A DNA stretch of 10,419 nucleotides from Escherichia coli (GCF_003334385.1 NZ_QOWN01000068.1), one strand, 5' to 3'; positions 7,812 through 8,389 are shown, counted from the first letter of the stretch. Made by a program: numbers and translations. The notes: generated by a model not told the origin, from the sequence alone.

Positions 7812-7880
7812 AGAATACCCACAGGTAAACAAAAGTCAATACCCACAGGTTGTTTACCTTGCGGTAATCGCATCTATTAT
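7812..7880. promoter_or_regulatory. OR-like divergent promoter/operator region between the Cro-like and repressor genes
   Basis: Two 12-bp near-palindromes, tacccacaggta (7816-7827) and tacccacaggtt (7840-7851), 24 bp centre to centre. Putative minus-strand pR has -35 TTGACT (7839-7834) and -10 TATTCT (7817-7812) overlapping the operators. Putative plus-strand repressor promoter has -35 TTTACC (7853-7858) and -10 TATTAT (7875-7880) ending 6 nt before the repressor ATG, implying a leaderless mRNA. Confidence 0.55.
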
Positions 7881-7886
7881 TTACCT

Positions 7887-8306
7887 ATGGACAAATATGA
7901 ATTTAGACGACAGCAACTCATCAAAATTCGTGATGAGAAATGCGATGGTAAAGCGGTTAACGTGGCCAGAAAGATCGGGCGCGAGCCTTCTTATGTATCA
8001 AGAATGTTGTACCCAGAGGGGAAAAAGGGAAAAAAACGGATCGCTGATGATATGGTGGAGATTATCGAAGAGTCCTTTGGGTTACCCCGGGGATGGATGG
8101 ATGGTATCGTTTCATCATCAACGAACACAGCCTCCAGTTATGAAACAAGGGTTCTAACGCCACGACAACGTATTTTTTTAGATCTCTTAGACGAACTGCC
8201 AGAAAGTGAAGCGGATAAATTATTAAAAACTCTTGAAGAGAAAAAACAGTATTACAATATGATCTACGAAGAAATCCGTAAAAAGAAAGCACAAAACACA
8301 TCATAG
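7887..8306 (+). CDS. DicA/RacR-type prophage repressor (HTH, no LexA-like peptidase domain, 139 aa)
   Basis: Divergent from the Cro-like gene and flanked by operator palindromes; HTH-like segment GKAVNVARKIGREPSYVSRML; C-terminal ..LDELPESEADKLL.. resembles recalled DicA (..FNALPESEQDTQL..); no Shine-Dalgarno. Confidence 0.7.
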   Translation: MDKYEFRRQQLIKIRDEKCDGKAVNVARKIGREPSYVSRMLYPEGKKGKKRIADDMVEIIEESFGLPRGWMDGIVSSSTNTASSYETRVLTPRQRIFLDLLDELPESEADKLLKTLEEKKQYYNMIYEEIRKKKAQNTS

Positions 8307-8348
8307 CTCACCAAACAACTAGTCACCAGTTAAGACACCGCAAAAATT

Positions 8349-8389
8349 TACCCATGGGTATTTACTTTTTAAATACCTATGGGTATCCT
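8349..8389. promoter_or_regulatory. OL-like operator pair and putative promoter of the downstream ydfA-dicB-type operon
   Basis: Perfect 12-bp palindrome tacccatgggta (8349-8360) and near-palindrome tacctatgggta (8374-8385), 25 bp centre to centre, same consensus as the OR sites. Candidate -35 TTTACT (8361-8366) and -10 TATCCT (8384-8389) overlap them. Confidence 0.5.

Follow-up and report, generated by a model that had tools for sequence, protein, structure and literature searches.

In phage lambda, the repressor gene cI is followed by OL and PL in the same orientation, the right operator region OR is tripartite, the repressor mRNA from PRM is leaderless, and a CII-type protein provides an establishment arm. 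Here we analyze positions 7812-8389 of a 10,419-nucleotide stretch of Escherichia coli DNA (GCF_003334385.1, NZ_QOWN01000068.1; hereafter the window), which we read with good confidence as the switch that governs immunity in a lambdoid prophage of E. coli, one of the Qin/Rac/CP-933P type, and for which the closest studied analogues are DicA/DicC/dicBp of Qin and PaaR2/YdaS/YdaT of CP-933P. In Qin, Rem antagonises DicA, but the promoter dicBp can also switch spontaneously, and its response to urea and heat needs neither Rem nor RecA (PMC10448788), while the binding of DicA is temperature-sensitive (PMC3441716). In CP-933P, the paaR2 mRNA was found to be leaderless by 5' RACE and N-terminal sequencing, and PaaR2 is unresponsive to mitomycin C (PMC8630535). 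The YdaT proteins of CP-933P and Rac recognise a TTGATT-N6-AATCAA box, at which YdaT of Rac activates a reverse promoter inside ydaS and thereby raises the expression of racR (PMC9986795, PMC11879457).

The locus resembles Qin in the order of a Cro-like gene, divergent promoters, a short repressor gene and a promoter for ydfA-ydfB-ydfC-dicF-dicB, and in carrying operators not only in the divergent region but also at the downstream promoter (PMC10448788, PMC3441716). Its repressor has, like DicA, neither an Ala-Gly cleavage site nor an S24 domain, and the C-terminal segments of the two proteins are homologous. In contrast, the N-terminal DNA-binding domain is unrelated to that of DicA at the sequence level, the Cro protein belongs to another family, the DicA operator Oc reads TTGTTAGTCATAACTAACAA and Qin is devoid of TACC-N4-GGTA sites, and no homologue of Rem was found at the locus studied here. 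With CP-933P of E. coli O157:H7 it shares a CI-like repressor that is short and lacks a peptidase motif, a divergent region of about 100 bp and an additional PL-type promoter with operators (PMC8630535), as well as a YdaS-type Cro, a YdaT analogue of CII and the same TTGATT-N6-AATCAA box (PMC9986795). However, the operators of CP-933P are 18-bp repeats of another consensus, a paaA2-parE2 toxin-antitoxin pair lies behind its repressor gene, and the N-terminal domains of the two repressors are only faintly similar (7nkv_A, E 0.26). Footprints of PaaR2, a leaderless repressor mRNA and bistability have been shown in CP-933P (PMC8630535), whereas we infer their counterparts for the present locus.

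A third group, consisting of mEp043 cI, CharmingMan and many LexA-family repressors of Enterobacterales, has the same N-terminal domain, the same half-sites, the same layout of three plus two operators and a homologous Cro, but mEp043-type repressors are 221-242 amino acids long and contain Peptidase_S24, are presumably cleavable with the help of RecA, and their PL drives an N gene. The likeness to lambda extends to the tripartite OR, the 24 bp between OR1 and OR2, an operator at about -41/-42 of the repressor promoter, the position and orientation of OL/PL downstream of the repressor gene, the -10 element directly before the AUG and the CII-type arm. Unlike in lambda, where the operators measure 17 bp, those here have a length of 12 bp; OR2 and OR3 are separated by 15 bp instead of 23 bp, only two OL sites were detected, the repressor lacks an S24 domain, and the window contains no N gene.

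Four 12-mers match the consensus TACCYAYRGGTW, with no further match in the 10.4-kb window; the mean for shuffled sequences was 0.01 matches, and the observed count was reached in 0 of 200 shuffles. An earlier annotation made from the sequence alone (the initial annotation) had proposed four 12-bp sites, spaced 24-25 bp within each of two pairs, one pair in the divergent Cro/repressor region and the other before the ydfA-dicB-type operon. Their coordinates proved exact, the centre-to-centre distances were measured as 24 bp (OR1-OR2) and 25 bp (OL1-OL2), and both gene order and promoter overlap agree with the placement of the pairs. On the whole, the reading given in the initial annotation proved essentially correct in silico. 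The total of four must be raised to five, since a site with perfect half-sites, OR3, emerged 15 bp from OR2 once the centre was relaxed to TACC-N4-GGTA. The 100-bp intergenic region between the Cro-like and repressor genes (7787-7886) thus contains three TACC-N4-GGTA sites over two back-to-back consensus promoters. OR1 (7816-7827, TACCCACAGGTA) covers the spacer and first -10 bases of the leftward Cro promoter. OR2 (7840-7851, TACCCACAGGTT) abuts the -35 hexamers of both divergent promoters, and its centre, as computed from the coordinates, is located at about -41 from both predicted transcription starts. OR3 (7855-7866, TACCTTGCGGTA) extends over the -35 and the spacer in the promoter of the repressor gene, and its centre is not of the alternating pyrimidine-purine (YRYR) type seen in the other four sites. 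OL2 (8349-8360, TACCCATGGGTA), a perfect palindrome, directly abuts the -35 of a PL-like promoter, while OL1 (8374-8385, TACCTATGGGTA) lies in the spacer of that promoter with its last two bases starting the -10. A weak sixth match, TACCTATGGACA at 7882-7893 over the repressor start codon, was spotted by eye; it is not kept in relatives and was treated as chance.

We compared these positions to those in mEp043, CharmingMan and eight more distant loci that were fetched singly (from Serratia, Yersinia, Edwardsiella, Klebsiella, Pantoea, Kluyvera, a metagenome and a further NCBI assembly). Residues 1-86 of the repressor are 65% identical to mEp043 cI and to a CharmingMan protein, and in each of the two phages cI is preceded by three TACC-N4-GGTA sites, spaced 25 and 15 bp apart, while two more, 25-26 bp apart, lie farther downstream. 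In all loci with a Cro gene, sites are present near -72 and -32 relative to the start codon of MDKYE, as is a third at -47, the latter being degenerate in three of them (Yersinia L087, Pantoea L091 and L093). The layout of three plus two sites thus recurs in the Serratia, Yersinia, Edwardsiella, Pantoea and metagenome loci, whose repressors have the N-terminal DNA-binding domain in common with the one studied here. OR1 at -71 has its counterpart at -72/-73 in the relatives, the -47 position of OR2 is kept, and the -32 position of OR3, together with its 15-bp offset from OR2, recurs in mEp043, CharmingMan, L086-L089, L091 and L093. The downstream pair was identified in all such loci except the short contig L093, in an identical -35/-10 register throughout. 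Its distance from the end of the repressor gene varies between 43 nt and about 1.9 kb, which implies that the pair belongs to the promoter rather than to the repressor gene. By this comparison the divergent region is a tripartite OR1-OR2-OR3, in which the third site is a genuine and conserved part of the design. The literature searched contains no description of the TACC-N4-GGTA operator type, a text search with the 12-mers returned unrelated primers only, and none of the publications on mEp043 appears from its title and abstract to deal with the operators of this phage.

Two controls indicate which protein domain the operator sequence follows. In Tritos, the repressor has the same C-terminal half with a different N-terminal domain, and the immunity region of Tritos contains no TACC-N4-GGTA sites; a different pair is located there, which is also 24 bp apart. 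The immunity region of Qin likewise contains no TACC-N4-GGTA sites. Across the relatives, Cro homologues travel with the operators. Thus, as far as sequence comparison goes, the operator sequence is coupled to the N-terminal domain and to Cro, not to the C-terminus of the repressor, while the spacing within pairs is shared. We take the five sites to be putative operators shared by the repressor and the Cro-like protein.

A consensus scan for promoters, which covered 7700-8600, listed exactly two promoter-like sites. The PR-like promoter of the Cro-like gene (7839-7812, minus strand) has the -35 TTGACT (7839-7834), a 16-nt spacer and the -10 TATTCT (7817-7812) and scores 9/12; the TTG that immediately abuts OR2 is kept in relatives. 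The PRM-like promoter of the repressor gene (7853-7880, plus strand) consists of the -35 TTTACC (7853-7858), a 16-nt spacer and the -10 TATTAT (7875-7880). Between this hexamer and the repressor ATG (7887) lie 6 nt and no Shine-Dalgarno sequence, as described in the initial annotation. In an anchored alignment of the relatives, read by eye, a -10-like hexamer (TAGAAT, TAAGAT, GATACT, TAGACT or GAAAAT) also ends 6 nt (7 in CharmingMan) before the ATG of MDKYE. The fixed distance across genera and the missing ribosome-binding site argue for a leaderless repressor mRNA, for which PaaR2 of CP-933P is an experimental precedent (PMC8630535). Together they support in silico the earlier suggestion of a leaderless repressor mRNA, which from the maintenance promoter would start at or beside the AUG.

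The second operator set accompanies a PL-type promoter downstream of the repressor gene. This PL-like promoter (8361-8389, plus strand), predicted to drive ydfA-ydfB-ydfC-DicF(-dicB), has the -35 TTTACT (8361-8366), a 17-nt spacer and the -10 TATCCT (8384-8389), and corresponds to dicBp of Qin (PMC10448788). Nine diverged loci share its geometry, in which the -35 follows OL2 directly and is separated by 7 nt from OL1, which in turn overlaps the -10 (TAnnnT). In some loci, the next gene is N: in the Klebsiella locus, an N homologue follows the pair, and in a degenerate Kluyvera remnant, one site precedes an N homologue.

The repressor gene (7887-8306, plus strand) encodes a protein of 139 amino acids that is assigned to phrog_5736, transcriptional regulator (PHROGs, 1.2e-69), and that has no Pfam match even at E<=10, so that no Peptidase S24 domain was detected. 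Its close full-length relatives in a large protein database are 135-139 amino acids long and likewise without Pfam domains, whereas relatives of the N-terminal domain are mostly 221-242 amino acids long and carry Peptidase_S24 (PF00717). An AlphaFold (AF2) model with a mean pLDDT (predicted local distance difference test) of 85.6 contains four helices in residues 3-63 within an N-terminal helix-turn-helix domain of about residues 1-75, a disordered linker (76-86) and, at residues 92-138, a hairpin of two helices. In Foldseek searches, the N-terminal domain of the model superimposes on helix-turn-helix regulators of the XRE type, such as C.Esp1396I, and the best overall structural match in the PDB is Rep of a Salmonella temperate phage bound to its antirepressor (5d50; E 1.6e-3, template modelling score about 0.45); sequence searches of the PDB with the repressor gave nothing significant. 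Residues 86-136 match residues 81-131 of DicA (NCBIfam NF007257, E 1.9e-5), BLASTP aligns the two proteins over 46 amino acids (33% identity, E 2e-7) but not in their N-terminal domains, and the C-terminus of DicA matches phrog_5736 in turn.

The initial annotation was thus right that the repressor has no S24 domain, which relatives with the same DNA-binding domain do carry; to this it can be added that the C-terminal part has a recognisable structure, a DicA-like helical hairpin. Judged by its sequence, the repressor is a domain chimera, in which a DNA-binding module of the mEp043 type is joined to a C-terminus of the DicA type. It lacks the S24 domain with a Ser/Lys dyad and the Ala-Gly site of self-cleaving repressors, its C-terminus being just a two-helix hairpin in the model, and would therefore be unable to cleave itself. 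Its size falls within the range of about 135-150 amino acids of DicA-type repressors, it has no cleavage domain, and its gene is located between a cro-like gene and a ydfA-dicB operon. In strain 203740, the repressor is annotated in RefSeq as "hypothetical protein".

The two genes to the left of the operators add a CII-type arm. The Cro-like regulator (7505-7786, minus strand; 93 amino acids) is a member of the YdaS family (Pfam PF15943, YdaS_toxin, 1.1e-5; phrog_35) and is 70% identical to Cro of mEp043 and 47% to Cro of CharmingMan, both from phages with the same operators. It is followed by a CII-like regulator of the YdaT family (7096-7521, minus strand; 141 amino acids), which matches the CII-like activators of phrog_163 (3.2e-47) and Pfam PF06254 (3.9e-10). 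A YdaT-box (7511-7528, TTGATTTTCATGAATCAA) spans the ydaT start codon and is an exact match to TTGATT-N6-AATCAA, with 0.04 matches expected. A YdaT-family protein and a perfect binding site thus occur side by side, and by analogy with Rac the box implies a CII-like establishment input to the repressor, which amends the initial annotation. Within the Cro-like gene, no reverse (PRE-like) promoter could be recognised by consensus, as expected if such a promoter depends on an activator.

From these features we propose the following model. A repressor dimer would read the TACC/GGTA half-sites with its N-terminal helix-turn-helix and sense the 4-bp YRYR centre through DNA shape. In a lysogen, OR1 and OR2 (24 bp) and OL1 and OL2 (25 bp) would be filled pairwise, and OR1 and OL1, which lie over spacer and -10, would block the two lytic promoters, that is, the leftward promoter of the Cro-like, YdaT-like and replication genes and the rightward promoter of ydfA-dicF-dicB. 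OR2, centred near -41 of the repressor promoter, is placed such that it could stimulate this promoter, and OR3, as it overlaps the -35, would shut it off at high levels of repressor or upon binding of the Cro-like protein. The repressor mRNA would begin at or next to the AUG, YdaT bound to the YdaT-box may give a CII-like establishment input, and the circuit would be expected to be bistable. Derepression would proceed via an antirepressor, possibly encoded elsewhere, or by another route, self-cleavage being presumably impossible.

Several observations weigh against this model. OR2 and OR3 are just 15 bp apart from centre to centre, which makes their simultaneous occupancy uncertain, and the rules of lambda need not apply. 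The PL-like promoter is weak by consensus and was not listed in the scan because its score is only 8/12. The NF007257 match reaches 24.5 bits as compared to a cut-off of 101, so that DicA homology does not extend to the whole protein. A YdaT-activated upstream promoter would also yield leadered repressor transcripts, which limits the leaderless claim to the maintenance promoter. Finally, the wider search for an antirepressor gene that the initial annotation had called for recovered none, either in the window or in the full prophage copy.

The last point bears on how the repressor is removed. In the Gifsy prophages (GfoR/GtgR with GfoA/GftA) and in SPC32H (Rep-Ant), short repressors that are not cleaved, as this one, are inactivated by small antirepressors (PMC3121763), but the likeness is one without a demonstrated sequence relationship, and neither a dinI-antirepressor operon nor a LexA box as in Gifsy was found here. 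Matches to the LexA box occur at chance level alone in the window and in the complete prophage of strain 203740, and none is located near a candidate gene. The open reading frame at 2451-2723 (minus strand) occupies the position of rem in Qin, but it is classified as phrog_1212 rather than the Rem family phrog_340, is unrelated to Rem by BLASTP and has homologues that are all labelled "hypothetical"; we do not propose it as an antirepressor. The same architecture could operate with no antirepressor at all, the repressor being lost by proteolysis, by effects of temperature or nucleoid proteins or by a stochastic take-over by Cro, as reported for DicA. We regard this as a real possibility, if the less probable one: it accords with the absence of antirepressor genes and LexA boxes from the window and the full prophage, with the finding that dicBp of Qin switches spontaneously and that its induction by urea or by heat depends on neither Rem nor RecA (PMC10448788), and with the temperature-sensitive binding of DicA (PMC3441716), but the nearest structural match, 5d50, is a repressor under antirepressor control, DicA does respond to Rem (PMC10448788), and antirepressors of Gifsy can act in trans from other prophages (PMC3121763), which makes a missing antirepressor in cis weak evidence. 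By analogy with these systems, antirepressor-based derepression is plausible.

The downstream pair could instead be read primarily as an intrinsic terminator of the repressor transcript, with its operator likeness secondary. OL2 and OL1 can pair in RNA to form a 16-bp hairpin (8349-8395, plus strand; -22.2 kcal/mol, z -6.5) that is followed by the U-rich UCCUUAUUUU, this is the sole terminator-like signal between the repressor stop codon and ydfA, and read-through into dicF/dicB would be harmful given the established toxicity of DicB and DicF (PMC10448788). However, any two palindromes with YRYR centres will pair, the hairpin can form in all nine relatives with stabilities that range widely from -9 to -21 kcal/mol, and the U-rich tail coincides with the conserved -10. 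Moreover, exact half-sites and a fixed -35/-10 register persist even about 0.4-1.9 kb beyond the repressor gene, as predicted for an operator-promoter unit. We therefore find the terminator explanation unlikely and rate the hairpin as largely a by-product of the operators, which may have a secondary role in ending the repressor transcript.

The diversity of the operators among close copies of the locus was examined in 75 near-identical sequences (among loci L006-L085) with an identical repressor DNA-binding domain. These copies came from a scan of viral contigs with a profile of the N-terminal domain, and since all were 100% identical in that domain, they were useless for covariation and were used for diversity only; an ungapped estimate for OL was distorted by indels, and the values given are from a MAFFT alignment. 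In the operator centres (7820-7823, 7844-7847, 7859-7862, 8353-8356 and 8378-8381), 13 of 20 positions were variable (nucleotide diversity pi 0.099), as compared to 3 of 40 in the half-sites (pi 0.008) and 10 of 87 at four-fold synonymous sites of the cro and repressor genes (pi about 0.009). The centres were thus about tenfold more variable than synonymous sites (Fisher p = 2e-6). The changes in the centres were mostly transitions that retain YRYR at OR1, OR2, OL1 and OL2, while the centre of OR3 was YYRY in all 75 copies. The sole common variant in a half-site was a recurrent G-to-A change at position 7863 in the right half-site of OR3 (GGTA to AGTA, in 12 of the 75 copies), which would weaken OR3.

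The repressors of 434 and P22 read their half-sites directly and the operator centre by its shape, and the pattern of variability fits a similar mode of recognition by the present repressor. It is also conceivable, although we consider it rather doubtful, that the centres are under diversifying or tuning selection, or that they are mutationally hot through being protein-bound. The same data bear on whether the region is a decaying relic of a cryptic prophage, with repeats that were kept by descent and regulate nothing. A premature stop in ydfC and the frameshifted repressor variants P0010 and P0021 of some E. coli could be taken as signs of decay. Yet, the half-sites are nearly invariant in the 75 copies while the adjacent centre positions vary freely, the reading frames of the repressor, Cro-like and YdaT-like genes are intact in the window, and at least 80% of positions 7400-8900 is present at high identity in 646 of 5426 complete E. 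coli genomes, with the cassette intact, all of which makes decay very improbable. In P0010 and P0021 (window 7887-8060), at least the first 45 residues are from an alternative frame (open reading frame from 7897), after which the proteins are in frame, and these variants are probably inactive.

It is least credible that the sites are bound solely by the YdaS-family Cro-like protein or another factor and that the 139-amino-acid protein does not act on them as a repressor. The sites are accompanied by Cro homologues in the same way as by the N-terminal domain of the repressor, such that co-occurrence alone cannot separate the two proteins. However, Klebsiella and Kluyvera remnants without a Cro gene keep a repressor homologue and still have sites, both upstream and at the promoter that precedes N; in every lambdoid switch studied, the two proteins share their operators (PMC8630535, PMC10448788); and the repressor model contains a helix-turn-helix domain.

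These remnants (L090 from Klebsiella and L092 from Kluyvera) are minimal loci beside a pyruvate:ferredoxin oxidoreductase gene. Cro and replication genes are missing from them; they hold no more than an S24-type repressor of the same family, a PL flanked by operators, an N homologue, holins and an endolysin, and could be either a decayed prophage or a repressor-controlled lysis cassette.

The genes around the switch follow the order of Qin, dicC-dicA-ydfABC-dicF-dicB, and of lambda. Leftward from the switch, the Cro-like and YdaT-family CII-like genes are followed by O-like and DnaC-like replication genes and, farther left, by a hok/sok module, a DUF968 gene, rusA and a Q-like antiterminator gene. 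The module consists of an open reading frame for a hokD-like toxin and the sok antitoxin RNA (2894-3219; Rfam RF01794, 120 bits) and is located between the replication genes and the Q-like gene. An open reading frame for 228 amino acids with an HSCCAPCS motif (3287-3973, minus strand; phrog_3217, unknown function), which we take to resemble the epoxyqueuosine reductase QueH (DUF208), is an unusual passenger for the early region of a prophage.

Rightward from the switch, the early-left operon of the dicB type starts with ydfA (8572-8727, plus strand) and continues with ydfB (8730-8857), ydfC (from 8887) and the DicF RNA (10104-10155). The premature stop in ydfC comes after 29 codons (8887-8976), and as the translation beyond it still resembles the YdfC protein of K-12, the gene is presumably a recent pseudogene. 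Between ydfC and DicF, at about 9100-10100, there is approximately 1 kb with two converging open reading frames of unknown function (9128-9529, plus strand, phrog_1363; 9489-9806, minus strand, phrog_18692). In strain 203740, where the prophage adjoins ompW, the gap from ydfC to dicB is just about 540 bp.

The accepted picture of lambdoid switches is unchanged by these results, and the design of this one is ordinary. The cassette is nevertheless common in E. coli (646/5426 genomes) and would control DicF, DicB and genes of the YdaS/YdaT type, which are harmful or useful to the host, as known from Qin. The TACC-N4-GGTA operator, the layout of three plus two sites and the promoters provide an experimental map for the element, and the operator may serve as a marker of an immunity group common to many prophages of Enterobacterales. 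If the variability of the operator centres is due to selection, prophages would tune the strength of repression, and hence spontaneous switching, via positions of indirect readout, with the protein left untouched. Since one DNA-binding module and operator layout appears joined either to an S24 domain or to a DicA-like hairpin, the mode of induction could be studied in this family as a swappable part.

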